Virus record (IMG/VR): IMGVR_UViG_3300027838_001061
Coordinates: 1 to 37,203 of that record
From: a virus
Taxonomy: Duplodnaviria > Caudoviricetes
DNA: 37,203 bases
Direction: 5' to 3' (one strand)
The notes below the pieces were generated by a model. It saw only the letters and a program-made list of their open reading frames with translations, did no database searches and was not told the DNA's origin. Shown here piece after piece: positions 4,735 through 29,958 of the stretch. The translations under genes and the position numbers were made by a program. How positions within the stretch are numbered: the first letter of the stretch is position 1; every line of letters starts with the position of its first letter.

Positions 4735-5164
4735 AAAAAGAACAGATAGAAGCAAGTACAAATCACCTTCCACCGGAGACTATTGCACAACGGCTCAGTA
4801 TATAGCAGAACTTATGTGTCAAAGAATGGCCGAAAACTCTAACGAAGGCTCGCTGGCATATAAATTCTGGAACACAGAAAAGTGGAAGGGCACTTTCACC
4901 CAGCAGGTAGTGCTAGCGAATCGTCTTCTAAAAAATTATGACGAGAGAGCAGTTATAAGAGCTTTGAGGAGTAAACGAGGGTCTAAAATATATTCCTTAC
5001 GGTTCCCCGCTCTTTCCGATCTCATAGAATCTGAGCAGTCCGGTCTAGAAAAAGAACTGTCTAGACAAAAGACTATAGACGTAACTTCTCACAACTCTAA
5101 AGTAATTCCAAAGCCTTTTGGAAAGAGAAGTGGAATAAACAAACTGCGAGATCTAGATGAGTAA
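4727..5164 (+). CDS. Hypothetical basic protein (145 aa) upstream of recA
   Basis: Overlaps both neighbours; no recognised family. Confidence 0.7.
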   Translation: MAEKRTDRSKYKSPSTGDYCTTAQYIAELMCQRMAENSNEGSLAYKFWNTEKWKGTFTQQVVLANRLLKNYDERAVIRALRSKRGSKIYSLRFPALSDLIESEQSGLEKELSRQKTIDVTSHNSKVIPKPFGKRSGINKLRDLDE

Positions 5165-6200
5165 AAATAAAAATACCAAGTTTGATGACCCTGTAACCAA
5201 GGAAGTTATCAAAAAATATGGCCATGTTGTCAGGGCTGGAATAGATGTTTTTGAGGAAAGCTCCAACCTAAAGGTCATATCGGTCAGCCCGGCCCTAGAC
5301 GTTGCCTTGGGTGGGGGTATAAGAGAGGGGAGTTGGGTTATTTTTACCGGGGAGCCAAAGACTGGGAAAACTACAACAGCACTACATTTTGCCGCCAACT
5401 GTCAAAAAGAAGAAAATGGATCAAGACCAGTAATTTTCATTAACGCAGAAGGCAGACTAAAGTCCATGAATCTTGGTGGAGTCAAGGGCTTGGACATTGA
5501 AAAAATTCGTGTTGTTGAGTCTGATGCAGAGCCAATGAGCGCGGAAGAATATCTTGATATTGTAGTCAAGTACGTAAGCAAGGAGCCAGAGTGTGTTGTG
5601 ATAATAGACTCAGCCTCCGCCCTTATACCAGAGAGAGAACTAATAGAGGATGTGAGCGGGCAGTTCAGAGCGGGGCTGCCGAAAATATTAGCAGCTTTCA
5701 CAAGAAGGCTCTCAAATGTAGTTACAAAGCAGAGGGCAATAATAATTCTCATCACCCATTTTATAGCCAACACCAGCGGGATGGGTAGGAAGACAAAGCT
5801 GGCAGATGGCGGTAAAAAAATACAATACCAAGCTGATACCAACATGGTCATAGAGTATATAAAATCGTGGGAATCTGGAGGACGTAGCATAGGCCAACAA
5901 ATAAATTGGAAAGTGCTGTGTTCTTCTTCTGGTGGATTCCCCGGATCTACCGCTCAGGGGTGGTTAAGGTATGGTGTTGGTGTAGATAGCATACAAGAAC
6001 TTCTTATGATGGGTATAGAATTTGGTATTATATCTAAGGCTGGAGCTTGGTATAGCTGTAATTTCCTTGAAAACCACGGGGAGAAGTATTCAGAGATGTC
6101 TGAAGAAAAATTTCAAGGACAAGATAAATTGTACAATTTTATCGAACAAAACCCAGATGTCATGAATTTGCTGAATGAAGAGTTAAAGGCAATTCTGTGA
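5157..6200 (+). CDS. recA: RecA/UvsX-like recombinase
   Basis: SPALDVALGGG, Walker A GEPKTGKTT, FINAEG (catalytic Glu), Walker B VIIDS, GGKKIQY, C-terminal KAGAWY...FQG. Confidence 0.92.
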   Translation: MSKNKNTKFDDPVTKEVIKKYGHVVRAGIDVFEESSNLKVISVSPALDVALGGGIREGSWVIFTGEPKTGKTTTALHFAANCQKEENGSRPVIFINAEGRLKSMNLGGVKGLDIEKIRVVESDAEPMSAEEYLDIVVKYVSKEPECVVIIDSASALIPERELIEDVSGQFRAGLPKILAAFTRRLSNVVTKQRAIIILITHFIANTSGMGRKTKLADGGKKIQYQADTNMVIEYIKSWESGGRSIGQQINWKVLCSSSGGFPGSTAQGWLRYGVGVDSIQELLMMGIEFGIISKAGAWYSCNFLENHGEKYSEMSEEKFQGQDKLYNFIEQNPDVMNLLNEELKAIL

Positions 6201-6619
6201 AGGTTTTAGGTTTTGATGGTATGCAAAAAACGTGGAACCTGACCAAGCATGTTCCAAGTAAAAATGATAAGAGACACCGATCAAAAAATCATCTGCGAGC
6301 AAGAAAAATCCTTCGTGAAATCTTTCCAAGAGACCGTCTTCTTGAAGAGGTCTCCCTTCCGGGTAGCAACACGCCCAATAGGAAGTCGCTACTATACGCA
6401 GACTTTTTTGTACCATCACACGATCTTGTGGTAGAAGTTCACGGCAGCCAACATTACGAGTTTGTGAAGTTCTACCACAAAACCAAAGGTGAGTACTATC
6501 GCTCTAGAAAGAGAGATCAAGACAAGATTGACTGGTGTAAACTAAATTCCCTTACAATAGTAGTACTAAAATATTCTGAGAGTGATGATGTCTGGACAAA
6601 AAGGATTAACGGCGAGTGA
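6197..6619 (+). CDS. DUF559/Vsr-like PD-(D/E)XK endonuclease
   Basis: YADFFVP...VVEVHGSQHY...RDQDKIDWC...IVVLKY matches the Vsr/DUF559 pattern. Confidence 0.7.
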   Translation: MKVLGFDGMQKTWNLTKHVPSKNDKRHRSKNHLRARKILREIFPRDRLLEEVSLPGSNTPNRKSLLYADFFVPSHDLVVEVHGSQHYEFVKFYHKTKGEYYRSRKRDQDKIDWCKLNSLTIVVLKYSESDDVWTKRINGE

Positions 6620-7073
6620 GCGTCTTGCTAGGTTTGAGAAAGCAACCGAGGATTATATAAATTCTAAGCACCTATGTCCCATAGGGTTTAATATTGAAGC
6701 AATCGAGATACTAAACTTGACAGTTGAAGAATTAAAAAACCTCTCCCCCGAGGAATGTGTAGCGAAATCTTATGTGGTATTTGCTTACGCTAATTATCTA
6801 CAGGAAGAGCATAATCTCAATTTAGTAAAACTAAACTACGCTAATGATTCTTTGAGACAAATTGTTACTGCTGAGATGGGACAGTTTGACAAGTACATGA
6901 AACATGAAATAAAACAACAGAACGTTATAAACAACAATGAATTTGCTTCGAAGTTAGACAATATCAGAAAACATGCCCAAGCAAGAGTTGACAAGATGAC
7001 TGAAAAAATAAGAGACATACGAAGAATGGGTGAATCACTTTTGGAACTTGCAAAAAGGAAAGCGTACTCATGA
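6588..7073 (+). CDS. Helical/coiled-coil hypothetical protein (possibly UvsY-like recombination mediator)
   Basis: Helical, heptad-rich composition; two genes downstream of recA. Function is inferred from context only. Confidence 0.55.
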   Translation: MSGQKGLTASERLARFEKATEDYINSKHLCPIGFNIEAIEILNLTVEELKNLSPEECVAKSYVVFAYANYLQEEHNLNLVKLNYANDSLRQIVTAEMGQFDKYMKHEIKQQNVINNNEFASKLDNIRKHAQARVDKMTEKIRDIRRMGESLLELAKRKAYS

Positions 7074-7507
7074 ATCCTATAGACAAGATAAAGTCTGGCA
7101 TACAGAAAAATAATATGATCCTTGTCTCTGAGGGGTTTGAAGATCTGACTGGAGAAAAAGTCATCGCAGAAGATGAACAAGAGGTGGTTGAAACAGAGAA
7201 GGAAGACGCGGGAGATAGTTTTATAACCTCAACCAGATCGTCGGAGACTAGCGGGAAAAGTAGGATAGCCAGATCAGAACCTTTAGATATCACAGATCGA
7301 GAGAACACCTTTGTTGATGATGGGACCGAAGCCTCGGAAGACACGGCTGTGGATAAAAAACTGGCGGTTAAACCTCCCGTCGAAAGAACCAGAAGGATAT
7401 TCAAGAGAATTTCTACCACATGTGTTTCGTGCAATAAGAATTTTGAGATCCATCCCACATTAGTTCGCGAAAATTACAAGTGCGATAATTGCATAACAAG
7501 AAGATAA
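7070..7507 (+). CDS. Hypothetical protein with acidic middle and C-terminal C4 zinc finger
   Basis: CVSC...CDNC at the C-terminus; ATGA-coupled to the previous gene. Confidence 0.7.
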   Translation: MNPIDKIKSGIQKNNMILVSEGFEDLTGEKVIAEDEQEVVETEKEDAGDSFITSTRSSETSGKSRIARSEPLDITDRENTFVDDGTEASEDTAVDKKLAVKPPVERTRRIFKRISTTCVSCNKNFEIHPTLVRENYKCDNCITRR

Positions 7508-7509
7508 AA

Positions 7510-8970
7510 GTGAATCTATTACATAACTCAGCGGCTGAACGAGCGGTTCTTTCAGGAGTTTGTTCACATGGAGCCAGCGCTTTTATAGACATAGGCGGGG
7601 TAGTTGAATTTGATACTTTTGTTATCGAAGAAAATCAGATAATTTACAAGTGTCTTTGTAAAGTGCTTGAAAAATCTGACTCTGTAGATATATCCTCAAT
7701 ACTAGCCGCCGCCAATGATCTTGATTTTCAGGACAACTTAAACAGCAAGAGTGGTCTTGAACATCTTCGTGCGGTATATCATTTTCCGATCAAGCTAGAA
7801 AATGTTAGGCCGCACGCAGTAAAAATTCGTAAACTACAGCTTGCAAGAGATATACAAAAGCTATCTAAAGAAATATACAATAACATATCAACAATTGATG
7901 GTGACGAGAGTATAAGTGAAATAATAAATATTGCGGAGAAGCCTATATTAGACTTTTCTTCCAATCTAAACAGAGAAGAAGACAGTACTCCGTTACCATT
8001 GGGTAAAGACATTGAAGAATACATCAAACACCTAGAGGAAAATCCATCAGACATACTGGGCATACCCAGCGGATACAGTCGGTATGACATTAGTATCGGG
8101 GGAGGACTCAGAAGAAAGTGTGTTGACTTAATCGCCGCTCGTCCCAAGGTTGGTAAAAGCATGTTTGGCGATAATGTTGCGATGCATGTAGCAGGCGAGT
8201 TGAACATACCGGTCCTGATGCTGGACACCGAGATGTCAAAAGAGGATCATCTCAACAGAATACTTGCTAAATTAAGTGGCATAGATATAAATGATATCTC
8301 TACAGGAAAGTGTTTTAGTAGCCAGACAAATAAAGAAAAAATTGAGAGGTCAGCCAGAAAGATAGAAGAAATACCATATGATTATATCAGCATATCTGGA
8401 AAGCCTTTCGATGAAATACTTTCTCTGATGAGAAGATGGATTATACAAACGGTTGGCTTTGATGAGAACGGCAGAACAAATAACTGCTTGATAATTTACG
8501 ACTACTTGAAATTGATGACCTCCGACACGATCAACAATAGCGTTCAGGAGTTTCAGGCTCTTGGTTTTCAGATAACCGCACTTCATAACTTTTGTGTTGA
8601 ATACGATTGTCCATGCCTAAGTTTTGTACAGCTAAACAGAGATGGTATAACCAAAGAATCTACGGATGTTGTCAGTGGCTCAGACCGACTGATATGGTTA
8701 TGCACCAGTTTTAGTATTTTTAAGAATAAGAGTGATGAAGAGATTGCAGAGGATGGCGATGAGTATGGAAACAAAAAGCTGGTCCCAATCGTTGCCAGAC
8801 ATGGCCCCGGACTTTCCGACAGAGACTATATAAGCATGGCTATGAAGGGCGAGACCGCCAACATTGTTGAGAAGTGTACACGCAATGAAATAAGAAAAGT
8901 CGTTAAACAAAAAGATGAAGGATTTGTTGTAGAGGATAACAATAAAAACGATATTCCATTTGAAATGTAA
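7510..8970 (+). CDS. dnaB: Replicative DnaB-family helicase
   Basis: N-terminal AERAVL, GIPSGY, Walker A AARPKVGKS, DTEMS, Walker B IYDYLKLM, VQLNR, ARHG. Likely start is GTG 7510. Confidence 0.93.
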   Translation: MNLLHNSAAERAVLSGVCSHGASAFIDIGGVVEFDTFVIEENQIIYKCLCKVLEKSDSVDISSILAAANDLDFQDNLNSKSGLEHLRAVYHFPIKLENVRPHAVKIRKLQLARDIQKLSKEIYNNISTIDGDESISEIINIAEKPILDFSSNLNREEDSTPLPLGKDIEEYIKHLEENPSDILGIPSGYSRYDISIGGGLRRKCVDLIAARPKVGKSMFGDNVAMHVAGELNIPVLMLDTEMSKEDHLNRILAKLSGIDINDISTGKCFSSQTNKEKIERSARKIEEIPYDYISISGKPFDEILSLMRRWIIQTVGFDENGRTNNCLIIYDYLKLMTSDTINNSVQEFQALGFQITALHNFCVEYDCPCLSFVQLNRDGITKESTDVVSGSDRLIWLCTSFSIFKNKSDEEIAEDGDEYGNKKLVPIVARHGPGLSDRDYISMAMKGETANIVEKCTRNEIRKVVKQKDEGFVVEDNNKNDIPFEM

Positions 8971-8976
8971 AACTTA

Positions 8977-10035
8977 ATGCAGAAATTTGAAAAAGAAAAG
9001 ATCAGCGTTCTCTCTGAGAAGTTATCTGAAAGAATCATTGATATACTGGACCACTTCAATATTGAATATACCGAACAGGACGAGTGGATATACTGTCCCT
9101 GTCCTGTGCATGACGGAGACAAAAAGGATGGGTTTAGCATCCGACAATCAGACATTTTTCCAAACCAAATAGTATGGTCTTGCTGGACCCACCATTGTGA
9201 AAAAGAATACATCAATTCTGTTTTGGGGTTACTACGAGGTATCCTCTCTAGAGAGAGAGGTGAGGAAGTAGGATTCCCCCAAGCCGTTTCATTTGGATTT
9301 AAATTTTTGAACTTCTCCCCCGATGACATAAAAGTAGACGAATCTCAAAAAGATAAGTCAAACTTTATAAGGTGTGCAAATAGCATATTTAAACAAAAAA
9401 AGGAAGCAAACAAGGTCGCGACTAGGGCGATGGTTGTGGCGGGATTGTGTAGGCCCGTCGAATACTATTTGAACAAAGGATTTAACCAGTCAACTTTAGA
9501 CTTTTTTGATGTGGGAATCTGCAAAGACCCATCAAAACCTATGTATAATAGAATTGTTGTTCCGGTGTATGATGACAGTCACGCCTACATGACTGGGTGC
9601 ATTGGGAGATCACTGGAGGAGAAGCCCTTGACTCATAAATGGGTTAATAGCAAGGGTCTTAACACGGGTGACTTCCTATATAACTACTGGAACGCCAAGG
9701 AATTCATCGAAGAAACCAGCAGCGTGGTAGTGGTGGAGGGTCAGGGAGACGTGTGGCGTCTTCATGAAGCCGGTATTAGGAATTCTGTTGGAATGTTTGG
9801 TTGCTATTTGAGTGATTATCAGCGTATAATATTAGAGAGGTCTGGGGCGTTGAATCTCATAATTTTAACCGATAGCGATGAAGCGGGAAGAGATGCGTCT
9901 GCGAGGATAAAAACCCAGTGTGAAAGACTTTTTAATATATATACTCCAGACATAACCCCACACAAAGACGTGGGTGACATGAGCGTTTCTGAGATACAGC
10001 AGATACTAAATCCTCAACTACAAGGTCTTATATAA
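8977..10035 (+). CDS. dnaG: DnaG-type primase (CHC2 zinc finger + TOPRIM)
   Basis: CPVH...CWTHHC zinc finger, NRIVVPV, GRSL, TOPRIM VVVEGQGDV and DSDEAG, KDVGD. Confidence 0.9.
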   Translation: MQKFEKEKISVLSEKLSERIIDILDHFNIEYTEQDEWIYCPCPVHDGDKKDGFSIRQSDIFPNQIVWSCWTHHCEKEYINSVLGLLRGILSRERGEEVGFPQAVSFGFKFLNFSPDDIKVDESQKDKSNFIRCANSIFKQKKEANKVATRAMVVAGLCRPVEYYLNKGFNQSTLDFFDVGICKDPSKPMYNRIVVPVYDDSHAYMTGCIGRSLEEKPLTHKWVNSKGLNTGDFLYNYWNAKEFIEETSSVVVVEGQGDVWRLHEAGIRNSVGMFGCYLSDYQRIILERSGALNLIILTDSDEAGRDASARIKTQCERLFNIYTPDITPHKDVGDMSVSEIQQILNPQLQGLI

Positions 10036-10370
10036 TGGTAACACTAACCGATAAGGCAGTCAAAGAAATTAAACGGGTTATGGAAGACTTGCCCGATGCT
10101 ACTAATAGTCTACTTAGGGTTGCCGTTGCGGGTGGGGGATGTTCTGGCTTTGAATATAAACTAGGTTTTGTAGAACTATCAGAGTATTCAGACAAAACCC
10201 ACAATAAATACGAGCAGGGTGGCCTAGCTCTAATCGTAGAAAAGAAGGCCGAATTATTTATCGACGGCACTACCATTGACTGGATAGAAGACTTGTCGAA
10301 ACGTGGATTCTCTTTTAATAACCCAAACGCTTCTAGCAGTTGTGGATGCGGTGAGAGCTTCAGCGTCTAG
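10035..10370 (+). CDS. iscA: A-type Fe-S carrier protein (IscA/SufA/ErpA, HesB family)
   Basis: TLTDKA, LRVAVAGGGCSGFEY, GTTIDW, NNPNASSSCGCGESF; all three Cys ligands present. The paralog (iscA/erpA/sufA) cannot be resolved by eye. Confidence 0.93.
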   Translation: MVTLTDKAVKEIKRVMEDLPDATNSLLRVAVAGGGCSGFEYKLGFVELSEYSDKTHNKYEQGGLALIVEKKAELFIDGTTIDWIEDLSKRGFSFNNPNASSSCGCGESFSV

Positions 10371-10400
10371 TTAGACATCTTACGTAAACGAGACTACATA

Positions 10401-11195
10401 ATGACTCAGAAAATACTGGCGTTTTCAGGATCTAAGCAGAGTGGAAAAACTACTAGGGTTAATTTTCTTCACGGCTATGAGATGAAAAGAACTGAAGCCA
10501 TAAAGATTTTTGAAATAAATGAGAATGGAAACTTGGTTGTAAATGCCGTCACTACTGATGAAAGAGGAGGGGCCTCAGAGGGTATGGGTGTCCTTGATGT
10601 AGAAAGGGATGATTTTGAGTTTGCCTCATACGCATCACAAAGGATATGGCCTTTCATCAGGGCTTACAATTTTGCCACCCCGCTAAAAGGGGTTTGCATG
10701 AGCCTGTTTGGACTCACACACAAACAATGTTACGGCACTGATCAAGAAAAGAACACCCACACAAACATTATGTGGGAAAATCTATCACCAGAACACAAAT
10801 CAGGCACAACGACCGCCAGAGAATTCCTGCAATTTTTTGGAACGGATATTTGCAGACAAATAAAATCAGATATTTGGACTTCGATCTGTATAGATCACAT
10901 CATAGATGATGAAAGCGAGCTTGCTATAATAGGTGATTGTAGATTCAGAAATGAAGTCGATGCCGTACATGAAGCTGGGGGTAAGGTCGTCAGACTACTG
11001 AGAAGGCCCAATGACGACAGTCACTCAAGCGAAAATGATCTAGAAGGCTATGATGAATTTGATTATGTGATTGATAATTCTGATATGACGATAGAGGAAT
11101 GCAATAAGAAACTGTTAGAGGTGTTGGTTGGCTGGGGGTGGGTTCAATCTGCGGAGCCTGTTGGGTTTACAATGAGGATAAAAGAGGATCGTTAA
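10401..11195 (+). CDS. Deoxynucleoside monophosphate kinase (T4 gp1-like)
   Basis: P-loop FSGSKQSGKT, FATPLK, REFLQFFGTD, IGDCRFRNE, HSSE. Confidence 0.82.
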   Translation: MTQKILAFSGSKQSGKTTRVNFLHGYEMKRTEAIKIFEINENGNLVVNAVTTDERGGASEGMGVLDVERDDFEFASYASQRIWPFIRAYNFATPLKGVCMSLFGLTHKQCYGTDQEKNTHTNIMWENLSPEHKSGTTTAREFLQFFGTDICRQIKSDIWTSICIDHIIDDESELAIIGDCRFRNEVDAVHEAGGKVVRLLRRPNDDSHSSENDLEGYDEFDYVIDNSDMTIEECNKKLLEVLVGWGWVQSAEPVGFTMRIKEDR

Positions 11196-11537
11196 ATGGG
11201 CGATGTAATAAAACCTTGGGGTTTCTATGAAGATATATTTAGGTCTGATGAGGTGGTCTTCAAAAGGATAGTGATAAGTCCCGGCGAAGAAATATCGTAC
11301 CAAAGGCATTCTAAAAGGAGTGAGTTTTGGTATGTGGCAGAAGGATTTGGATATTTCAGATGGAATAATGTTACCAAGTGGAAAGTCAAGCAGGGATTCA
11401 CTGTAGAAATAAACGTGAATGACAACCATCAGCTTATTAACACTGGAGATACTGATTTAGTCATCTATGAAATGCAGTATGGGAAGTGCGAAGAAGACGA
11501 CATCATAAGAATGGAGGATAAATATGATAGAGATTAA
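11196..11537 (+). CDS. Stand-alone cupin, type II phosphomannose isomerase C-terminal domain-like
   Basis: KPWGFY, KRIVISPG...SYQRHSKRSEFWYVAEG, HQLINTG...EMQYG...EDDIIRMEDKY. Confidence 0.85.
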   Translation: MGDVIKPWGFYEDIFRSDEVVFKRIVISPGEEISYQRHSKRSEFWYVAEGFGYFRWNNVTKWKVKQGFTVEINVNDNHQLINTGDTDLVIYEMQYGKCEEDDIIRMEDKYDRD

Positions 11538-11567
11538 ACTCAATCAACCTTTAATGGGATACACTGT

Positions 11568-12578
11568 ATGATAGTTACATATGTAAGAAGCTCTTCATAT
11601 AATAATTATGATTATTGTCAACAGCAATATTATATTAATTATGTTTTGGGACACCCCTCTCTTTCTGGAAAGAAGGCGGAGATGGGGACCATTGTACATA
11701 AGGTTATGGAGTGTCTTGCGCGATCAAAATACGCATTACAGAATAAAAAAAAGAGCTTCACAGACGAATCGTTGGGAAGAATTCGTCTAACAAAAGATAT
11801 AATGCTATCAGAGAACTTTGTAAATAATCTTACAGACAAAAGCATTGAATTTTATACAGATAGAAGCTCGCACGCTTTTACAAAAGGAGATTTGTCTAAC
11901 TGTCAAAAGTGGGTATGGCTCGCTCTAGAATACAACAAGGGACAATTTGACCCAAGAAAAAGAAAAATAGTAGCCGCTGAACCTCATTTTGACATCGAGA
12001 TCAACGAGCCTTGGGCCAAGTATGACTACGAGCTTCCAAGTGGTGAGACAATCTCTGGAAACCTTGCCATCAAGGGGACCATAGACTTGGTTACTGAATC
12101 TTCCGAAGATGTTATAGAGGTCGTAGACTGGAAGACTGGAAGAAGAATAGACTGGGCTACGGGTCAAGAAAAGGACTATGAAAAACTTTCCCAAGACCCA
12201 CAACTCCTTCTTTATAACTACGCGATCTCAAAGCTTTTTCCAGAATATAGTCAGTCAATAATGTCAATTTTTTATATCAGAGATGGAGGTCCATTTTCAC
12301 TATGCTTTGATAAATCTGATAGAGATAAATTTTTGGAGATGCTTAAGAATAGGTTTGAAGAAATAAAAGCAAACGAATCTCCTAGGATGCTATCTCAAGA
12401 ACAAGCACACTGGAAATGTAAAAAACTATGTGCATACTACAAAAATAATTGGGAAGGAACCAACACCAATATTTGTAAGCATGTCCATAAGGAGCTGGAA
12501 AATAAGGGTCTAGAAAGGACTACCGCAGAGTGTACTAAACAAGGTTTTAATATAGGGTATTATGATGCTCCCGGTTAA
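11568..12578 (+). CDS. PD-(D/E)XK exonuclease, Cas4/AddB/RecB-like
   Basis: SSYNNYDYC, GTIVH, GTIDLV, VVDWKTG, QLLLY, C-terminal CKKLC...C. Confidence 0.85.
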   Translation: MIVTYVRSSSYNNYDYCQQQYYINYVLGHPSLSGKKAEMGTIVHKVMECLARSKYALQNKKKSFTDESLGRIRLTKDIMLSENFVNNLTDKSIEFYTDRSSHAFTKGDLSNCQKWVWLALEYNKGQFDPRKRKIVAAEPHFDIEINEPWAKYDYELPSGETISGNLAIKGTIDLVTESSEDVIEVVDWKTGRRIDWATGQEKDYEKLSQDPQLLLYNYAISKLFPEYSQSIMSIFYIRDGGPFSLCFDKSDRDKFLEMLKNRFEEIKANESPRMLSQEQAHWKCKKLCAYYKNNWEGTNTNICKHVHKELENKGLERTTAECTKQGFNIGYYDAPG

Positions 12579-13494
12579 ACATTTTAGCAACGACGAAGTG
12601 GCAGACTTACTCTCAGTACCAGCTTGTATAGAGCTTGTAGAAGACCTATTTAAAAACATTGACGACACACAAATGCCGCCAAAGGTATACATGAATGTTC
12701 CAAGCGGGGACTTTCGGGCAATGCCAGCAGTAGTAGGCAACACGGCAGGAATCAAATGGGCCGGACTCAGTGTCAAGGAGGCGGGCAAGATCAACATCTT
12801 TGCTATGGTGATGATCAACGATATCGAAACTGGAGATCTGCTAGCTGTTCTAGATGCAGAAACTCTTACCGCTATTAGAACGGCTGCTGTGACGGGGGTC
12901 GCCACAAGGTATCTATCCCGTACTTATTCCAGAACGGCAGCATTTATAGGGTGTGGACATCAAACCCTTCGCCAAATTCAGGCGGTGTTGGCTGTCAGAG
13001 ATATAAAAACTATAAAGCTCTTTGATCTTAGCGAAGATAGAGCCAACGCAGTAAAGGACAGTCTTGACTATTTACCAGAGCCTATCAAGGTAGAAGTTTG
13101 TAAAACACTGGAAGATTGTCTGTGGGATTCTGACATAGTTACAACTCTAACGCCTTCCAGAAAGCCCTTCATAAAGTACGAGGATCTAAAACCCGTAGTC
13201 CACATTAATGCTGTTGGTGCTGACGCAGAAGGAAAAAGAGAATTGCACCCATGCGTCCTTGACAATGTAGACCTAGTTTCCTACGATGAGTGGGTTCAGT
13301 GTTCCCACTCTGGGGAGATACAATACGCTAAGAAAAGTAAAATCTCACAGATATGGTCGCCGCTAGCAGAGATAGTTCAGGGGAGAGTGGAGATGGACGG
13401 CGCTCTAACAACACTATTCGATGCCACAGGACTAGCTATAGAGGACGTTGCAGCAGCACGATATATTTATGAAAAATTCAACAGAACGAAGTAA
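12562..13494 (+). CDS. Ornithine cyclodeaminase/mu-crystallin family protein, archaeal alanine dehydrogenase-like
   Basis: MPPKVY, GDFRAMPA, GIKW, LTAIRTAA, Rossmann FIGCGHQ, TPSRKP, HINAVGAD, FDATGLAIEDVAAA. Confidence 0.9.
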   Translation: MMLPVKHFSNDEVADLLSVPACIELVEDLFKNIDDTQMPPKVYMNVPSGDFRAMPAVVGNTAGIKWAGLSVKEAGKINIFAMVMINDIETGDLLAVLDAETLTAIRTAAVTGVATRYLSRTYSRTAAFIGCGHQTLRQIQAVLAVRDIKTIKLFDLSEDRANAVKDSLDYLPEPIKVEVCKTLEDCLWDSDIVTTLTPSRKPFIKYEDLKPVVHINAVGADAEGKRELHPCVLDNVDLVSYDEWVQCSHSGEIQYAKKSKISQIWSPLAEIVQGRVEMDGALTTLFDATGLAIEDVAAARYIYEKFNRTK

Positions 13495-13999
13495 CATTGT
13501 TGAAGCCCCCTTCACCGAAGCGATGGTGAAGTCTGCAAAAGGCAAGGCAAAAAGATTGGGAGAAATAAAAAATTCTATTCTAAAAGGAAAAGGAAATTTT
13601 GCTGGCTACTTAGGGGAATCAATTGTTGCTGAGTATATTGGCGCGAAAATAGTTAGCAATAAAAGAGGTGAAGAAAAATATAATCACGACTTGGTGCTTG
13701 GGAACAAAACTATAGAGATAAAAACCAAGCGTAGGACAGTTCCCCCTAAAGATTTTTATGATGCTAGCGTTGCCCATACCAGCCTACATCAAAACCCAGA
13801 CTTCTATGTGTTTGTAAGTATTCAATTTCGTGGTGACAAACCAGTTAAAGCTTGGATATGCGGACAAAAAAATTCAACAGAGTATTTTAAACAAGCGACC
13901 TTCTATGCAAAGGGTGACGTAGACCCCTCAAACGGATGGAAGGTGTTAACCGATTGTTACAACTTGCCGTACAAGAATCTTGACCAGCTAGGACTTTAG
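13469..13999 (+). CDS. Hypothetical protein, restriction-endonuclease-like PD-(D/E)XK fold
   Basis: GYLGE...HDLV...IEIKTK pattern; start chosen at ATG 13469. Confidence 0.55.
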   Translation: MKNSTERSNIVEAPFTEAMVKSAKGKAKRLGEIKNSILKGKGNFAGYLGESIVAEYIGAKIVSNKRGEEKYNHDLVLGNKTIEIKTKRRTVPPKDFYDASVAHTSLHQNPDFYVFVSIQFRGDKPVKAWICGQKNSTEYFKQATFYAKGDVDPSNGWKVLTDCYNLPYKNLDQLGL

Positions 14000-14000
14000 A

Positions 14001-15935
14001 ATGACTTGGATTCCTCTACATCTGCATACTCATTATAGCCTGTTGGACGGTCTCTCGAAGCCCCCACAGGTTGCAGACCGTTGCGTGGAGCTTGGCTATG
14101 ACTCCTGTGCGATGACAGATCACGGCACGATTTCTGGAGCCGTTTCGTTTGTCAGGAGCATGCGAGAGAAGAATGTAAAACCAATTTTAGGATGCGAGTT
14201 TTATATATCAAAAGATGCCAAGCTAAGAACCAAAGAAAATAAAACTCTAACCCACTTGGTAGTATTAGCTAAGAATTTAACAGGTTGGAATAAGTTAATT
14301 GAAGCTACATCTAGAAGTAACGAAGAAGACGTATTTTATTTTAAACCTAGACTAGACCTAAGACTTTTGTCTGAAATCATAGGTGAAGATAAGGGCAGTC
14401 TAATATCTTTTAGTGGACATCCCGGTAGCGATCTTGCCAATGTTTTATTCCAAGATGTTAAGAAGGCATATTCGGCTCACAGTTATGACGAAGCAGCTAA
14501 GTACTTAAAAAAGGATTGGAAAAGAGAGTGCGTCTTTGCTGCGAACAGTCATCTAAAAGTATTTGGCTCTGGAAACTTTTTCATAGAGATACAGCTTATA
14601 GATAAGGACAACTTTCCGGCGTCTGAACTTATAGCAGAGTGCCTAAGAAAAGTCGCAGCAGAAACAAAAATACCCTGTGTTGCAACGGCAGACTCACACT
14701 ACCCCAAAAAAGAAGACGCGGCAGACCAAAGAATACTCCTTTGTTCTGCCATGAAAACAACTCTAAAAAAAGTAGAGAATAAGATAAGAAATAATGAAGA
14801 CGTAGGAATGTCCTGCTTTTTTAGATCAAATAACTACCACATTCCCTCGTCAGAAGAAATGGAATCATTGCACACAGAAGAAGAAATTCGTAACTCTTCT
14901 ATAATAGCTAGCTTTTGTGAGAATTATGATATACTTGGACAGCCTATGCTTCCAAAATTTTCTTGCCCAAACAATATGACAGAAGAAGAATATCTTCGAG
15001 ACCTTTGTCGAGATGGCTGGCGTAAAAGATTAAAAGCTCAGGATAAAGTTAACACAGAAGAAGACACTCAAAAATATGTAGACAGAATAAAAGAGGAGCT
15101 TGATGTAATACAAAAAGCCAACCTCTCTGGATATTTCCTAATAGTTAGAGATATTATAAACTATGTTAAAGAAAACAACTGGCTCGCTGGCCCCGGTAGA
15201 GGTTCCGCTGCGGGTTGTTTAATTTCATACCTAATAGGCATCACTGAAGTAGACCCTATCGAATATGACTTGATTTTTGAGAGGTTTTATAATATAGGTA
15301 GGAATACGGAAGACCATGTTTCCTTGCCGGACATAGACATGGATGTTCCCGCAACAAAAAGAGACGAAGTTATCGACTACATACGCTCTAAATATGGGGA
15401 AGATCGCGTGTGTCAGATGGTAACATTTGGAAGGCTGCAAGGCAGGAGTGCTCTAAAGGAAGTCCTCAGAGTTCATGATGCCTGTTCATTTGACGAGATG
15501 AACACCATAACAAAAGCATTGCCCCAAGAAGATAAAATATCTGATCAATTGGAGTCTATGGAAAGCCCCTCCTCTATAATGTGGACTCTGGCTTACCAAC
15601 CAGAGATTCTAAAGGGATACTGTGAACTAAAAGAGGATGGCACTCTGGGCGGTAATTATTCTAAGCTGTTCGAACAAGCCATAAGGCTCGAAGGAACCTA
15701 TAAATCTCAGGGGAAACATGCGGCTGGCGTTGTAATATCTTCTAAAGATCTAGACAAATCATGCCCCATGGTAAAAGAAACCAACGGGACTGGGAAAATA
15801 GCAGGGTTGGAAATGACAGACCTTGAGGCAATGGGTCATGTCAAGTTTGACGTTCTAGGCGTTAATTTATTAGATAAGCTCATGGGTGTTAGGGATCAAC
15901 TTTTAACTGGAGATATACATGAAGGAACATTATAA
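14001..15935 (+). CDS. dnaE: DNA polymerase III alpha, N-terminal half (PHP + palm/thumb)
   Basis: LHLHTHYSLLDG, TDHG, GCEFY, ADSHY, GPGRGSAAGCLISY, LIFERF, catalytic PDIDMD, GKHAAGVVI, KFDVLG. The ORF stops about 24 residues after KFD. Confidence 0.95.
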   Translation: MTWIPLHLHTHYSLLDGLSKPPQVADRCVELGYDSCAMTDHGTISGAVSFVRSMREKNVKPILGCEFYISKDAKLRTKENKTLTHLVVLAKNLTGWNKLIEATSRSNEEDVFYFKPRLDLRLLSEIIGEDKGSLISFSGHPGSDLANVLFQDVKKAYSAHSYDEAAKYLKKDWKRECVFAANSHLKVFGSGNFFIEIQLIDKDNFPASELIAECLRKVAAETKIPCVATADSHYPKKEDAADQRILLCSAMKTTLKKVENKIRNNEDVGMSCFFRSNNYHIPSSEEMESLHTEEEIRNSSIIASFCENYDILGQPMLPKFSCPNNMTEEEYLRDLCRDGWRKRLKAQDKVNTEEDTQKYVDRIKEELDVIQKANLSGYFLIVRDIINYVKENNWLAGPGRGSAAGCLISYLIGITEVDPIEYDLIFERFYNIGRNTEDHVSLPDIDMDVPATKRDEVIDYIRSKYGEDRVCQMVTFGRLQGRSALKEVLRVHDACSFDEMNTITKALPQEDKISDQLESMESPSSIMWTLAYQPEILKGYCELKEDGTLGGNYSKLFEQAIRLEGTYKSQGKHAAGVVISSKDLDKSCPMVKETNGTGKIAGLEMTDLEAMGHVKFDVLGVNLLDKLMGVRDQLLTGDIHEGTL

Positions 15936-16134
15936 CGAGGTACTTCTGGATGGATGTGCCATAGAATACAAGGATATTTCTCTTTGTAAAATCAACGATT
16001 ATTATGATAGAGCTATTAAAAAAGAATTGTACCAAGTACATTCTGATAATAGGAAATTTAAATTCAGCATGTTGTACAAAAACCTAAGTGCAGCAGTTGA
16101 AAAATTTTTGGAAATTAAAGGTATAGCGACATGA
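15919..16134 (+). CDS. Small hypothetical protein (71 aa) nested between the dnaE halves
   Basis: GGAG upstream; overlaps dnaE-N by 17 nt and is ATGA-coupled to the exonuclease. Confidence 0.7.
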   Translation: MKEHYNEVLLDGCAIEYKDISLCKINDYYDRAIKKELYQVHSDNRKFKFSMLYKNLSAAVEKFLEIKGIAT

Positions 16135-16814
16135 ACTATCGAGACATTATAGTTTTTGATTTTGAAACCGGATCTGTCAATCCAAACAAGACACAGCCAA
16201 CTCAAATAGCTGCGGTTGCGATACATGGTAGGAAGCTGACACCACAGCCCGGAGGATTTTTTAACAGTGAAATTCGTCCAATTCTTGATGACGAGGAGGC
16301 AATCAAGCAGGGTCTTGATCCCATAGAAGATGAAGCTCTTGAGATAACACACAAAACACGAGAAGAGTTAGCTAAAGCCCCACATCCTAAACAGGTCTGG
16401 AAAAAATTCACAAAATTTGTTGACAAATTTAATTTCAAAAAGACCCAATGGTACGCGCCCATACCAGCGGGATACAACATTCTTGGATTTGATATGGTGA
16501 TAGTAGATCGTATGTGTAAACAATACGGTCCACTAAACGAAAAAACTGGACATCAAAAATTGTTCAGTAAAGTCAACAAGATAGACGTTATGGATATGAT
16601 GTTTCTCTGGACAGAAAATGACCCAGATATAAAATCGATCAGCATGGATAATATGCGGAAATACTTGGGGTTGTCAAGCGAGAATGCTCACGACGCCTTA
16701 CAAGACGTTAAAGATACGGCGAACATAATGATCAGGTTTATGAAGTTCCACAGAGGTCTGGCATCCAGAACCAAATTTGAAAAGGCTTTTGCAGATGGCA
16801 ATTTATACGTTTGA
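16131..16814 (+). CDS. dnaQ: DEDDh 3'-5' exonuclease (DnaQ/epsilon-like)
   Basis: ExoI VFDFETG, ExoII AGYNILGFD, ExoIII AHDALQDV. Confidence 0.88.
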   Translation: MNYRDIIVFDFETGSVNPNKTQPTQIAAVAIHGRKLTPQPGGFFNSEIRPILDDEEAIKQGLDPIEDEALEITHKTREELAKAPHPKQVWKKFTKFVDKFNFKKTQWYAPIPAGYNILGFDMVIVDRMCKQYGPLNEKTGHQKLFSKVNKIDVMDMMFLWTENDPDIKSISMDNMRKYLGLSSENAHDALQDVKDTANIMIRFMKFHRGLASRTKFEKAFADGNLYV

Positions 16815-18450
16815 ATGCGGATGTGAGTTTGACATAGACGGAGACCGCTCTATACTAAAGGAGGACGGACTCCCTGTTATTAACCTGAACATACTTAATG
16901 TTAACTACGACTGCTCAAGAACTTGGGATCTTATATGCGACGGTAAAACAAAAGGGGTTTTTCAGTTAGAGAGTCAGCTTGGTAGGTCATGGGCAAAGAA
17001 GCTAAAACCCAGAAATATTGAAGAACTAGCAGCGCTGTCTGGACTATTGAGACCGGGATGTCTTAGAGCAATTGTAGACGGCAAATCCATGACCCAGCAT
17101 TATGTTGATCGAAAACATGGTAAAGAAAATATAGAATATATAGACGATTCTCTTGAGCCTATCCTAAAGTCTACACAGGGGGTTCTTGTATATCAAGAAC
17201 AGTCCATGAAAATTGCTCAGGTAATTGCCGGATTTAATTTAAGAGAGGCAGACGATTTAAGAAAAGCCATCGGTAAGAAAAAAGCCGATCTAATGACAGA
17301 GGTAAAGGAGACCTTCTTAAGAGGAGCGATTAAAAAAGATGTTGTTTCTAAAGAAGCAGCGGAGGAGATATTCGGGTGGATCGAAAAATCTAATCGCTAT
17401 GCTTTTAATAAGTCCCATGCTGTTTCTTATGCTATTTGTGGTTACTGGTCTGCTTATTGTAAAGCACATTTTCCGCTCGATTTCTACTGTAGCTACCTGT
17501 ATTATTCTGGGGGGAAACCGGACCCACAACAGGAGGTAAAAGATCTAGTTTCAGACGCTAAATCTAGCGGAGTATCGGTAGAACCCCCAAGAATAGAGAA
17601 GCTGAACAGGTCTTTTAAAATATATAATAAGTCTGTTAATTTTGGTCTTGGAGATATAAAGTATATCGGCAAGAACCACGTAGAAAAGCTGTTGTCTTCA
17701 GTAAAAGAGTATACCTCAACTGGACTGTTCAGCGAGGAGCTAGACTGGTATTCCTTTTTGATAAATGTTTCAGGTAAAATAAGCTCAAAAGTAGTTGAAT
17801 CACTAATACTGGCTGGGGCCTTAACAAAGCTTACAGGAAAAAAGACAGCCAGAAAAAAGTGTATGTATGAGTTTGAAACTTGGTCAGTGCTAACTAAAAA
17901 AGAGAAGGAATGGATTGTAGAAAGTTGTCAACAAGAAAACAATATATTATCTGCGCTTAAAAGACTATCCCCAACAAAAAAAGAAGGCGGCGGTACTTTC
18001 AGCAGCAAGAGAAAAGAGATAGTCGACGATCTCATAACCCAGCTAGAAACCCCACCATATTCTCTGGATGATTACCCAAATGAGATAGCCATGGACGAAG
18101 AAAGACTTCTTGGCGTAGCCCTTTCGTATTCCAAAGTAGATTCTTGTGACACAACCTCTGCGAACACAACCTGTAAGGAATATTCAGAAGGAAAAAAGGG
18201 TAAAATGACTTTGGGGGTAGAGGTAAAATCCTGTAGAGAATGGATTATAGCGAAGGGCAAAATGAAAGGTGAGAAAATGGCATTTCTAAGTATAGAGGAT
18301 GGAACTTCAGAAGCAGATTCAATAGTTGTATTTCCAGAAAACTGGGAAAAGTTTAAAAGCCTTTTGACAGAGGGCAACACGGTGCTCCTTTGTGGGGAGA
18401 CTTCAAAGAATAGAGACGGTCTTATAGTTGACAAGGTTTTTCAAATTTAA
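16795..18450 (+). CDS. dnaE: DNA polymerase III alpha, C-terminal half (fingers, HhH, OB fold)
   Basis: TKGVFQLES, LLRPG, VYQEQ, ADDLRKAIGKKK, YAFNKSHAVSY, GLGDIKYIG, EERLLGV, OB fold MAFLSIEDG...VVFP. Likely start is ATG 16795. Confidence 0.95.
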   Translation: MAIYTFECGCEFDIDGDRSILKEDGLPVINLNILNVNYDCSRTWDLICDGKTKGVFQLESQLGRSWAKKLKPRNIEELAALSGLLRPGCLRAIVDGKSMTQHYVDRKHGKENIEYIDDSLEPILKSTQGVLVYQEQSMKIAQVIAGFNLREADDLRKAIGKKKADLMTEVKETFLRGAIKKDVVSKEAAEEIFGWIEKSNRYAFNKSHAVSYAICGYWSAYCKAHFPLDFYCSYLYYSGGKPDPQQEVKDLVSDAKSSGVSVEPPRIEKLNRSFKIYNKSVNFGLGDIKYIGKNHVEKLLSSVKEYTSTGLFSEELDWYSFLINVSGKISSKVVESLILAGALTKLTGKKTARKKCMYEFETWSVLTKKEKEWIVESCQQENNILSALKRLSPTKKEGGGTFSSKRKEIVDDLITQLETPPYSLDDYPNEIAMDEERLLGVALSYSKVDSCDTTSANTTCKEYSEGKKGKMTLGVEVKSCREWIIAKGKMKGEKMAFLSIEDGTSEADSIVVFPENWEKFKSLLTEGNTVLLCGETSKNRDGLIVDKVFQI

Positions 18451-18456
18451 TATTCT
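18428..18456 (+). promoter_or_regulatory. Candidate sigma-70 promoter for the 18486-ssb-sigma genes
   Basis: TTGACA (18428-18433), 17-nt spacer, TATTCT (18451-18456), ending in the largest intergenic gap of the window. Confidence 0.45.
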
Positions 18457-18485
18457 CAAACCTCCTACATATCGTATATAATATA

Positions 18486-19034
18486 ATGGCGCCAGAGTTC
18501 AATAAGATAAAAAAGTTCTTCAAAGAGAATGATTATTATGTCAGGGTTTCTTCGAGTCATGACAAGTGCTGCTGTATCGCAGAATTTCCAGAGAGGACAG
18601 CGATAAAACCTTGGATTGATGGAAAAACGTGCTTGTACTCAATAGAGAAAAGTGGTATATTATATTTTAGTTCTGGATTTCCCTCAATCAAAACCGAACT
18701 AGATTTAATAGAAGAGAAAAACTTACACATAGAATGTCCCTCTTATGCCAGAAGACTTGTTATCTTCAATGATATATTTAACAACACAACAAAAATAGGA
18801 CTTTCTGTATCTTTCATATTGTTCTGTAACAACGATGGGTCAGAAGTTTCCGACATCCTGACTTTTACAGACATACTAAATCCACCCAAGACAGAAGAAG
18901 AAAAAGAATTAGAATTAGTTCTGGCTGAATTTTTCTATCTGAATCTAGAGAATCCCAGCGAGGATTATTCTGAAACGGCAGAAGAAAAAAATGTAGGACA
19001 AGGATACCGTCTGTTAAAAGGCCCGTTTGTTTAA
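18486..19034 (+). CDS. Hypothetical protein (182 aa)
   Basis: ATG-started ORF filling the space between dnaE-C and ssb. Confidence 0.7.
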   Translation: MAPEFNKIKKFFKENDYYVRVSSSHDKCCCIAEFPERTAIKPWIDGKTCLYSIEKSGILYFSSGFPSIKTELDLIEEKNLHIECPSYARRLVIFNDIFNNTTKIGLSVSFILFCNNDGSEVSDILTFTDILNPPKTEEEKELELVLAEFFYLNLENPSEDYSETAEEKNVGQGYRLLKGPFV

Positions 19035-19045
19035 GGAGATTTTGG

Positions 19046-19420
19046 ATGAATTCTTGTAACTTTATGGGAAGATTCGTGAAAGACCCGGATCTTAAGAATG
19101 CCAATGGGGTGGATGTTATAGATTTCACTCTGGCTATAAACGAATACAGAAAGTCAAAAGACGGATCTAAGACCAAGACCGTTGACTTTCTAGATTTCGT
19201 TGCTTGGGATACTGGAGCCGCAACAATAGCAAAACACTGTAAAAAGGGAGACAGGATTGCTTTAAGCTGCTCTGCGAGACAAGAAAAATGGGAAGATAAA
19301 ACGGGGAACAAAAGATCTGCAATAAAGTTTAGAGTAAACAAGTTCTATCTACTAACCGCTCCTCAATATTCTGAAGAACCTGATGAGAACGTGGAGGCAA
19401 TCGTTAGTGATGCTATATGA
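19046..19420 (+). CDS. ssb: Bacterial-type single-stranded DNA-binding protein
   Basis: MNSCNFMGRFVKDPDL, FTLAIN, FLDFVAW, KKGD, WEDKTGNKRS; AAGGAG RBS; acidic tail. Confidence 0.9.
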   Translation: MNSCNFMGRFVKDPDLKNANGVDVIDFTLAINEYRKSKDGSKTKTVDFLDFVAWDTGAATIAKHCKKGDRIALSCSARQEKWEDKTGNKRSAIKFRVNKFYLLTAPQYSEEPDENVEAIVSDAI

Positions 19421-19887
19421 ATAATTACAACCCCTCGGAGTCAGAGAACCAAAGGATAAAAGAAAATTACGGTCTAGTGGTTTCTCTGGCTCTTTCTTTT
19501 TCAAGATCATATAATCAAGATCTAGAAGACTATATTCAAGTCGGCTTAATAGGACTGCTTAAAGCAATCAGAAAGCATGACCCTGAACGTAGTAAGCTCT
19601 CAACGTATGCAACGGTTTGTATCAGAAATGAAATTGTAAAGTACACCAATAAAAACAAAAAGAATCAGTTTAATGCATCCTTAGAAAATCAAGCTGACAA
19701 CAGTTATCAAGATTCTTTTTGGGAATACGAACCAGACAGTTTGAGCGAGCAGGAGCGATCACTTTTATACATGAAAAGAGATAACTATTCATACCAAGAA
19801 ATATCAGAAGAGTTAGAATACTCAAAAAGCTACACAAAGGAACTTGCAAAAAGAGTTTTCAATAAAATAAATGAAGCAAATAAATGA
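19417..19887 (+). CDS. Compact sigma-70 family RNA polymerase sigma factor (regions 2 and 4)
   Basis: NYGLVVSLA...DLEDYIQVGLIGLLKAIRKHDPERSKLSTYATVCIRNEI (region 2); LSEQER...YSYQEISEEL (region 4 HTH). Confidence 0.88.
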   Translation: MNNYNPSESENQRIKENYGLVVSLALSFSRSYNQDLEDYIQVGLIGLLKAIRKHDPERSKLSTYATVCIRNEIVKYTNKNKKNQFNASLENQADNSYQDSFWEYEPDSLSEQERSLLYMKRDNYSYQEISEELEYSKSYTKELAKRVFNKINEANK

Positions 19888-21545
19888 GAAAAAAAAGGAT
19901 CCTGTTTTGTGGCGAAGCCACATATTTAAATACCGGATATGCAACCTATTGGCGGGAAATAATAACTAGACTGCACGCCACTGGGAAGTATGAGATAGCG
20001 GAGCTTGGAGGATATTCAAAGCCAGATGATAAAGAGCTATCTTATCATCCTTGGAAAATTTATCCGAACATGCCCGACATGAATGATGCCGCCTCTGTTG
20101 AAGAGTATAACAGCAACGTTCCAAATCAATTTGGTGAATGGAAATTTGAAGAGATCTGTTTAGATTTCAGACCAGATATAGTATGTGACATAAGAGACTT
20201 TTGGATGATGGAGTTTGAGGAAAGATCTCCTTTTAGGAGATTTTTTCATTGGTTTATAATGCCTACCGTGGACGCAGCACCACAACACCCGCAGTGGCTT
20301 TCTACATACTCCAGTGCAGATGCGGTGTTGTCATATTCAGAATGGGGAAGGGATGTTTTAAATAGGGAAAGCGGAGGGAAGGTTGACTGTCTTGGGATAG
20401 CTCCACCAGCGGCAGACAAGGTATACACACCGGTTGCCAACAAAGAGGCACACAAGCTATCGCTGGGGCTAGACCCAGACAGTATCATTATTGGCACTGT
20501 CATGCGCAACCAAAGGAGGAAACTTTTTCCAGATCTGTTTTTAGCCTTTAGAAAATTTCTGGATCTATACAAGAAACCAAATGTTTATCTATATTGTCAC
20601 ACGACTTACCCGGATGTTGGCTGGAACATACCCGAATTAATATCTAAGAACGGCCTTTCCAGTAGGGTATTACTAACCTATGCTTGCTCTGGCTGCGGAT
20701 CAACATTCCCCTCCTTCTTCCACGACGCTCTGACAGAATGCAAACACTGCCACAGCTTTCAGGCCAAGCTAACCAATCCCAGAGAAGGGGTTTCTACGGA
20801 GGTTCTATCTCAGATAGTTAACACCTTCGATTTATATGTGCAGTATGCCAACAGCGAAGGGTTTGGTCTTCCGCAGGTCGAGGCCGCTTCTTGTGGAATT
20901 CCTGTAATGTCTATTGATTACTCTGCCATGAGTAGCGTTGTAAGAAAAGTTGATGGCACACCCCTAAAACTAGCGGCAAAATACACAGAATTGGAGACCG
21001 GCTGTTTCAGAGCGGTCCCAGACAATGACTATTTTGTTGAGAAACTTAACGAGTTCTGCTCTTTACCAAAGGCTGTTCGAAGTAACAAAGGATTTCAAGC
21101 CAGAAAAGCATTTGAAAAAAACTACCGGTGGGAAGACAGCGTAAAGAAGTGGGAAGAACTTTTTGACGCTGCGGAAATAAGAAATGAAAAGGAGACGTGG
21201 GACTCACCTCCTAATATACATGAGCCACCAAAAGGATATCCAGACAATCTAGACACAAAAAATCTGGTAGACTGGCTAATAATTAATGTCTTGGGTGACA
21301 CGAGCAAGCTGAATTCCTATATGGCCGCAAGACTTATAAGAGACTTAAATTACGGTGTATCGACTGATGGAACTGGGGGAGTGTATTATAATGACGGCTC
21401 CCTTCTTTCTCTCAGTCCCAAAAATAAAAGGTTTGTGCAAGAGGATGCATACAGGGAGATGTTGATTCTTGCAAACAGAAAAAATTACTGGGAACAGATT
21501 AGGTCTAAACCTAAATGGGACTTTGGTGGAGTGACCAACAAATGA
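19884..21545 (+). CDS. GT4-family glycosyltransferase with CxxC...CxxC insertion
   Basis: NTGYATY, RNQRRK, EGFGLPQVEAASCGIPV; CSGC...CKHC insert. Confidence 0.85.
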   Translation: MRKKRILFCGEATYLNTGYATYWREIITRLHATGKYEIAELGGYSKPDDKELSYHPWKIYPNMPDMNDAASVEEYNSNVPNQFGEWKFEEICLDFRPDIVCDIRDFWMMEFEERSPFRRFFHWFIMPTVDAAPQHPQWLSTYSSADAVLSYSEWGRDVLNRESGGKVDCLGIAPPAADKVYTPVANKEAHKLSLGLDPDSIIIGTVMRNQRRKLFPDLFLAFRKFLDLYKKPNVYLYCHTTYPDVGWNIPELISKNGLSSRVLLTYACSGCGSTFPSFFHDALTECKHCHSFQAKLTNPREGVSTEVLSQIVNTFDLYVQYANSEGFGLPQVEAASCGIPVMSIDYSAMSSVVRKVDGTPLKLAAKYTELETGCFRAVPDNDYFVEKLNEFCSLPKAVRSNKGFQARKAFEKNYRWEDSVKKWEELFDAAEIRNEKETWDSPPNIHEPPKGYPDNLDTKNLVDWLIINVLGDTSKLNSYMAARLIRDLNYGVSTDGTGGVYYNDGSLLSLSPKNKRFVQEDAYREMLILANRKNYWEQIRSKPKWDFGGVTNK

Positions 21546-23690: not shown

Positions 23691-24112
23691 TGAAAGTTTA
23701 TCTAACCGTAAAGGGTGACAATATTAGCGGGTATCACAACATTGATGCCTCTTCTGGAGGAGATATTGTAAAGATGGAAGGAGTCGAAGACTCAGAAGCA
23801 ACCGAGATTATTGCTTCAGACGTAATTAATTTCACTGACATTGGCTCAATTAACGATCTATTGAGTGGTTGGATAAAAAAACTACGACACGGCGGTAGGA
23901 TCGTTTTAGGTGGAGTTGAGATTGATGAGGTATGTAAAGCTTTTGTATCCAAGGCTATTGATATAAATCAATTTAACAAAATCGTTTACGAGGGGAGGGT
24001 CAGCCAGATCACTGGTGCTGATCTAGAAAAAATTCTTATAAAGCATGGGCTTACTGTAACAAAAAAGAGGACTGATAATTTCAATATGATAATAGAGGCC
24101 ACTAGACCATGA
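23690..24112 (+). CDS. Degenerate class I methyltransferase-like protein
   Basis: GYHNID...EIIASDVI...WIKKLRHGG resembles short glycan-locus MTases, but the GxG SAM motif is absent. Confidence 0.5.
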   Translation: MKVYLTVKGDNISGYHNIDASSGGDIVKMEGVEDSEATEIIASDVINFTDIGSINDLLSGWIKKLRHGGRIVLGGVEIDEVCKAFVSKAIDINQFNKIVYEGRVSQITGADLEKILIKHGLTVTKKRTDNFNMIIEATRP

Positions 24113-29950: not shown

Positions 29951-29958
29951 CATTTAAC

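Follow-up and report, generated by a model that had tools for sequence, protein, structure and literature searches.

A split dnaE at the palm/fingers boundary

The stretch of DNA analysed here (the window) comprises the 37,203 bases of virus record IMGVR_UViG_3300027838_001061 and encodes its bacterial-type (family C) replicase DnaE as two separate open reading frames (ORFs): an N-half with the PHP, palm and thumb domains and a C-half with the fingers, HhH and OB domains. The split is intein-free, sits at the palm/fingers boundary, and is conserved and functional-looking. Judging from its sequence and that of its relatives, the phage DnaE is probably a non-covalent two-chain replicase.

The two halves and the genes between them form four consecutive ORFs on the plus strand. 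The N-half (14001..15935; 644 amino acids (aa); domains PHP and DNA_pol3_alpha) carries the catalytic aspartates D444, D446 and D617. It is followed by a conserved small gene (15919..16134; 71 aa), a DnaQ-like DEDDh 3'-5' exonuclease that is a likely proofreader (16131..16814; 227 aa; RNase_T/DEDD family, phrog_192) and the C-half (16795..18450; 551 aa, start codon ATG; finger, HHH_6 and OB domains). A previous inspection of this DNA alone (the sequence-only reading) had described a 0.86-kb gap filled by the 71-aa ORF and the exonuclease; the ORF coordinates agree, with overlaps of 17, 4 and 20 nucleotides (nt) and 859 nt from the N-half stop to the C-half start. Its assignment of PHP and catalytic aspartates to one ORF and of fingers, HhH and OB to the other is borne out by domain searches and by alignment to Taq alpha, and the DnaE set of PHP, palm/thumb, fingers, HhH and OB is complete when the halves are summed.

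In the Taq alignment residue 627 is the last one covered by the N-half and residue 629 the first covered by the C-half, so no part of the enzyme is lost at the break. We count 27 residues between the KFD motif and the N-half stop, correcting an earlier figure of 24. The C-half had been said to resume near GVFQ; 53 residues precede the motif. The distance from KxD to GVFQ is 49–50 aa in 16/16 bacterial enzymes and the tail and head here sum to 83; the break therefore adds residues and removes none.

As proposed previously, the break is distinct from that of the cyanobacterial split dnaE. The YAFNKSH motif is uninterrupted within the C-half (17398-17418), and of the cyanobacterial models DnaE-c begins at C-half residue 203 while DnaE-n ends at 206, in a sequence that is continuous in this genome. 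Since the two models meet at residues 203–206 of the C-half, the cyanobacterial break is a different site. The claim that neither junction holds an intein is likewise confirmed: a domain scan finds no Hint/intein family member at either junction or in 63 N-halves and 63 C-halves of the family, and the intein-bearing relatives L009, L144 and L147, used as positive controls, all score.

Active-site residues are spread over both halves

D444, D446 and D617 of the N-half and R156 and K157 of the C-half are invariant in 63/63 sequences, and R156/K157 align with Taq R766/R767. In DnaE structures the corresponding aspartates bind metal and the corresponding basic residues bind the incoming nucleotide. 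With the aspartates on one chain and the nucleotide-binding fingers residues on the other, catalysis should need both chains, and this is our main argument for assembly. Predicted alone, the C-half takes the fingers-to-OB shape of DnaE with a predicted local distance difference test score (pLDDT) of 89. A complex prediction for the N-half, the small protein and the exonuclease, in which the exonuclease was scored, returned 0.00, which is no answer and is used neither way.

In the mechanism we propose, the two chains, for which no splicing element was found, would dock non-covalently and rebuild one replicase. The break would fall in the palm–fingers connector, a place tolerant of free ends, and the exonuclease encoded in the gap would serve the rebuilt replicase as its proofreader. 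The extra residues at the start of the C-half include a C8-x-C10 ... C40 head (16816..16914, plus strand). The third cysteine is present in 39/39 C-halves that have the CxC pair and in 12/81 of those without it. From this co-occurrence we suggest, speculatively, a possible metal site created at the new N-terminus.

The split is recurrent and under purifying selection

The sequence-only reading had suggested looking for the same split and gene order in phage and metagenome databases, and both recur there. All our searches were seeded from the split dnaE family, mostly with split-form queries, and the ratio of split to fused loci is not a census. Three viral scans, one of them represented by the best 80 of its 269 loci, gave 147 loci, or 142 after five same-contig repeats were dropped. 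Among these 142 viral contigs listed, 137 are split at the palm/fingers boundary with the exonuclease between the halves, three are fused (one being a distant DnaE, 30%) and two are incomplete; the 137 include L001, whose sequence is that of the window itself. The best 80 loci of a metagenome scan comprise 59 split loci with the exonuclease between, 18 with no N-half in view and three fused. Among the loci listed, the viral and metagenome collections, which partly overlap, hold 196 split loci. When the fused protein P0121 served as query, 55 of the 57 loci returned were split.

The motifs PDxDxD, GRGS, KxD, LR[KR]AxGKK and FNKSH are retained in 118/118 complete split loci. Compared with the relative L002, the ratio of nonsynonymous to synonymous substitution (dN/dS) is 0.053 for the N-half, 0.096 for the small gene, 0.034 for the exonuclease and 0.050 for the C-half, and nonsynonymous divergence (pN) is far below synonymous divergence (pS) in 13/13 pairs tested. 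All four genes are under strong purifying selection. Each of four near-complete related genomes (three split, one fused) has one DnaE catalytic domain, and none of the four has a match to PolA, PolB or the beta clamp.

Fused and intein-bearing relatives and the history of the split

For a tree we took the palm and fingers columns, where merging at 90% identity reduced 116 rows to 91, and left out fused proteins with internal inteins. The family is strongly supported, and within it the fused proteins fall into three groups; both of its main branches contain split forms. A split-only clade is rejected by the approximately unbiased (AU) test (p-AU 0.000116; 37 rows, LG+G4), for which labels were taken from gene layout and which was run after the first tree had been seen and with no mixture model. 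In two of the fused groups the junction measures 42–45 aa (19/19) and the exonuclease lies upstream; in the third it measures 47–52 aa and the exonuclease lies downstream. In 6/6 fused family loci inspected the exonuclease stays near dnaE, upstream in L008, L009, L195 and L224 and downstream in L153 and L220. We also looked for the loci of the fused proteins P0128 and P0146, and found neither.

Because fused relatives nest among split ones, re-fusion is suggested. We consider it fairly probable that the exonuclease gene inserted once, long ago, to create the split, and that two or three re-fusions later moved that gene out. Telling against this history, change counts alone cannot separate one split with re-fusions from several splits (at least three changes are forced). 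Lateral spread of the split by phage recombination, or its repeated origin at one weak point, is a contender of real though lesser probability. Such a course would fit the failure of split forms to make one clade, the only partial agreement of N-half and C-half distance matrices (Spearman 0.79; same nearest neighbour in 39/63) and the poor resolution of key branches in the tree. It sits less well with the same break point and a homologous exonuclease in every split form on both deep branches, and with the differences among fused groups in junction length and exonuclease position.

Further breaks and inserts occur elsewhere in the dnaE genes of this family. At L009:8001-12687, and also in L008, palm and fingers are fused and the order is small gene, exonuclease, dnaE; dnaE there is cut at FNK/SH, where a split intein flanks the break and a NUMOD3/DUF559-like endonuclease gene separates the pieces (a 'fractured' gene). 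In L144:5001-10787, L145 and L147 dnaE comes in three pieces, through the intein-free split and a second break in the C-half; a Hint domain is confirmed in L144 and L147. At L148:1942-4935 a LAGLIDADG endonuclease gene, which may mark an intron or an intein, divides the N-half into two ORFs. P0123, P0125–P0127, P0140, P0145, P0149 and others are stand-alone C-halves of 966–1273 aa with at least one cis-intein in the fingers.

The exonuclease between the halves

The DEDDh residues of the exonuclease (D10, E12, D121, H187 and D192) are invariant in 63/63 sequences. It thus has the active site expected of Pol III epsilon (DnaQ); close homology to a validated DnaQ was not found. No curated epsilon model in NCBIfam reaches its cut-off, the best epsilon model scoring E 8e-5, and 'epsilon' as a label for this protein is a functional guess.

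The state of the PHP domain bears on its role. In this genome all nine PHP metal ligands are present (H7, H9, D16, H41, E66, H85, H140, D231 and H233), and on sequence the N-half matches at 9/9 positions the HHDHEH[C/H]DH motif given for active PHP proofreaders in the relevant passages of PMC12926913. Over 63 sequences the ligands are all-or-none, with 9/9 in 23 and 0–1/9 in 38, and loss often comes with a deletion of ~85–90 residues. The same passages describe inactive PHP in DnaE1 as complemented by DnaQ-type proofreaders (PMC12926913). The PHP ligands are gone from most relatives, which nevertheless retain the exonuclease; for this reason we think that it is probably a proofreader.

Four points weigh against this assignment. 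The top solved match of the exonuclease, the PolC exonuclease domain 2P1J, is weak (E 8e-10). Proofreading is not the sole role of DEDDh nucleases. The PHP domain looks intact in this genome, and a second proofreader may be superfluous here. Finally, the locus L152 (3365-8170) has the same split with a uracil-DNA glycosylase in place of the exonuclease in the gap. The C-half of L152 is itself in two ORFs.

It is possible, but rather unlikely, that the halves associate while the exonuclease and the small gene are mere operon neighbours at a tolerant insertion site, the nuclease acting elsewhere in DNA processing or binding only transiently. The gap does take unrelated cargo (six metabolism genes in L016–L021, several other inserts and the glycosylase of L152), and curated epsilon models are not reached; moreover, the passages on DnaQ in PMC12926913 describe standalone homologues as common and the mycobacterial DnaQ as not stably bound to DnaE1. 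Set against this, the exonuclease lies between the halves in 137/137 split viral contigs, changes more slowly than the other three genes in most pairs, and remains near dnaE in the fused relatives; PHP ligands, moreover, are lost in 38/63 sequences.

With the exonuclease read as a proofreader, a wider and distinctly tentative proposal can be phrased, which we hold to be doubtful as a whole. The split would be a working design and not a scar; the new palm and fingers ends would form an interface, partly a cysteine–metal staple, that docks a non-canonical proofreading nuclease; the lineage would have switched more than once between two-chain and one-chain states; and some members would be three-piece enzymes joined both non-covalently and by intein trans-splicing.

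The small gene and other cargo of the gap

The 71-aa protein has no family in Pfam, PHROG or NCBIfam, and 0/46 members of its own family have a Pfam match. It is predicted to fold as helix, beta-meander, helix; Foldseek against viral structures gives no match at E 0.001, and matches in the atlas reach at most 0.86 and are unnamed. YkuJ (2FFG; Z 6.5, root-mean-square deviation 2.5, 62 aligned) was rejected as its fold, being within the range of common arrangements. The strong purifying selection on the small ORF argues that it is a genuine gene. With no family and no clear fold we treat it as accessory, likely an operon passenger and not a core subunit; a core role for it appears improbable.

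The small gene family occurs in 105/137 split viral contigs (96 by BLAST and nine by profile), and is elsewhere missing or replaced. Ten loci have an unrelated ORF of 56–64 aa instead, and in several the exonuclease directly follows the N-half. In one clade (L077–L089) the unrelated 56–64 aa ORF has a conserved [ST]CC motif. At L018:1422-7350, as in the rest of L016–L021, six genes (~6 kb) separate the small gene from the exonuclease; judged by eye, they resemble amino-acid catabolism genes (aldehyde dehydrogenase, amidinotransferase, aminotransferase, saccharopine dehydrogenase-like).

The sequence-only reading had pictured a four-subunit enzyme made in coupled stoichiometry. The comparison does not bear this out as a fixed arrangement: the small gene is found in 105 of the 137 contigs, inserts reach ~6 kb, reading frames vary, and L152 has a glycosylase in the gap. 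The variable frames and gap sizes also weaken strict coupled stoichiometry.

Rejoining of the halves, assembly and decay

The two halves might yet end up as a single chain through some mechanism that escaped recognition, be it an intron, a frameshift or hop of the ribosome, or protein splicing of a non-canonical kind. The ORFs overlap in this genome, and the lineage has split inteins and endonucleases at other dnaE sites (L009, L144, L145 and L147). The RNA run compared, X20, covers the first 330 nt only, and not the junctions. It contains 5% of the sequence words and two 151-nt pieces, and is not taken as evidence of expression. Rejoining nevertheless seems very unlikely: Rfam gives no match over 15500-17200 at E up to 1, the 126 halves are free of Hint, and the intervening genes encode conserved proteins under selection. 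Across 63 loci the C-half lies in frame 0 relative to the N-half in 11, +1 in 28 and +2 in 24, and all three values occur among the frames between N-half, exonuclease and C-half. The N-to-C gap can be as short as ~0.65 kb or as long as ~6.9 kb, reaching ~6.8 kb in the loci with the six inserted metabolism genes, and junction tail and head lengths vary freely. Since frames vary, overlap is absent in some loci and gap size varies, a family-wide intron, hop or frameshift is unlikely. A frameshift fusion of exonuclease and C-half was considered and rejected, given that frames vary and that 18/63 loci have no overlap between the two.

Although intact fused relatives exist, misassembly or a decaying pseudogene can be dismissed as extremely improbable, with a contig of run X5 (record 8, 15536-17371), which is not among the runs flagged as possible sources, spanning both junctions at 0 differences, runs X6 and X7 each bridging both through separate contigs, 196 split loci listed, dN/dS of ~0.05, and no other polymerase detected in near-complete relatives.

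The phage and its relatives

All long ORFs of the window lie on one strand. They encode nucleotide metabolism functions, RecA, DnaB, primase, the polymerase block, a single-stranded DNA-binding protein (SSB), a sigma factor and a 17-kb sugar-modification cluster. The replication block (5157..19887, plus strand) comprises RecA/UvsX, DnaB, primase, a deoxynucleoside monophosphate kinase, a PD-(D/E)XK nuclease, SSB and the sigma factor, in an order mostly common to relatives. Within it lie a HesB/IscA-type iron–sulfur assembly gene (10035-10370) and an ornithine cyclodeaminase-family gene (12562-13494). The region 19884-36878 (~17 kb) encodes glycosyltransferases (one GT29 sialyltransferase-like), epimerases, methyltransferases, an acetyltransferase and a DegT aminotransferase. 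A scan for tRNA genes found none, and promoter and terminator scans gave no usable result.

Near-identical DNA is present in marine metagenomes, with some of it in 20/24 listed runs and at least half of the window in nine. The near-complete related genomes are 145–167 kb aquatic phages. Cultured phages include no close relative, the top identity being ~36% for the N-half and ~31% for the C-half and exonuclease. Five related contigs fall in metagenome-assembled genomes (MAGs) of the GTDB collection; two of them have additional breaks, and their matched flanks follow phage gene order. MAG membership was rejected as host evidence: the five belong to MAGs of four different groups and the flanks are phage-like, so we read the contigs as binned phage DNA and name no host.

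Comparison with known systems

Single-chain DnaE/Pol III alpha enzymes (Taq 2HPI/3E0D, E. coli 2HNH/5FKU, M. tuberculosis 5LEW/7PU7) have the same domains, order and catalytic aspartates as the phage enzyme, and the C-half model matches their folds. The phage enzyme differs in its division over two genes at the palm–fingers boundary, in place of the single polypeptide of family C, in the CxC..C head added to the C-half, and in the absence of aligned residues beyond the OB domain.

Split inteins rejoin the products of the cyanobacterial split dnaE and of metagenomic 'fractured' dnaE, according to the passages on them in PMC2677866. These systems resemble that of the phage in having two genes and, in fractured loci, another gene between the pieces, and such loci at FNK/SH occur within the family (L009, L144 and L147). 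The phage break, however, lies ~150–200 residues upstream, with no Hint half-domains at its junctions and an exonuclease, not a homing endonuclease, in between.

Intein-free splits are described for family B polymerases in the relevant part of PMC3061061: gp43 of the T4-like phages 133, 44R, 31, 25 and 65, Methanothermobacter PolB and phage RM378. These polymerases function as two chains, and the phage genes lie 2 bp to 3 kb apart (PMC3061061). As far as that account goes, a two-gene replicase working as a non-covalent pair is the best model for how the phage DnaE may work, although the family B fold is unrelated, its cuts fall in the finger tip or the palm, and its proofreading domain is built in.

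The sequence-only reading knew of no precedent in family C. This stands in part: the literature searched (with supplements and most subscription journals outside the search) holds no description of a palm/fingers split of full DnaE, and the passages on 'split' in PMC3201878, PMC4889955 and PMC12926913 contain none. It must be qualified by the group 2.2 jumbo phages, for which the passages concerned in PMC7824862 report a predicted minimal split Pol III alpha that comprises the catalytic core only, is encoded by distant genes and coexists with PolB. On that account they share with the window a predicted C-family catalytic module made as two stand-alone phage proteins, but theirs is split inside the core, whereas the type described here runs in full from PHP to OB, has clustered genes, and has DnaE as the only polymerase detected (no PolB match in 4/4 related genomes).

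Within the literature searched we find no full-length bacterial-type replicase that works with palm and fingers on separate chains, yet among these large phages of sea and fresh water, a widespread lineage, the two-chain form seems to be the rule. Annotated gene by gene, the polymerases of these phages would be scored as fragments. If fission and re-fusion took place as we suggest, the family is a case of both in the gene for an essential enzyme, and its PHP-active and PHP-dead relatives, taken as pairs, may show how a DEDDh nuclease takes over proofreading from PHP. Compared with the single-chain enzymes, the phage would offer a natural split point for DnaE, tested by selection, at which fingers and palm could be separately studied or exchanged.

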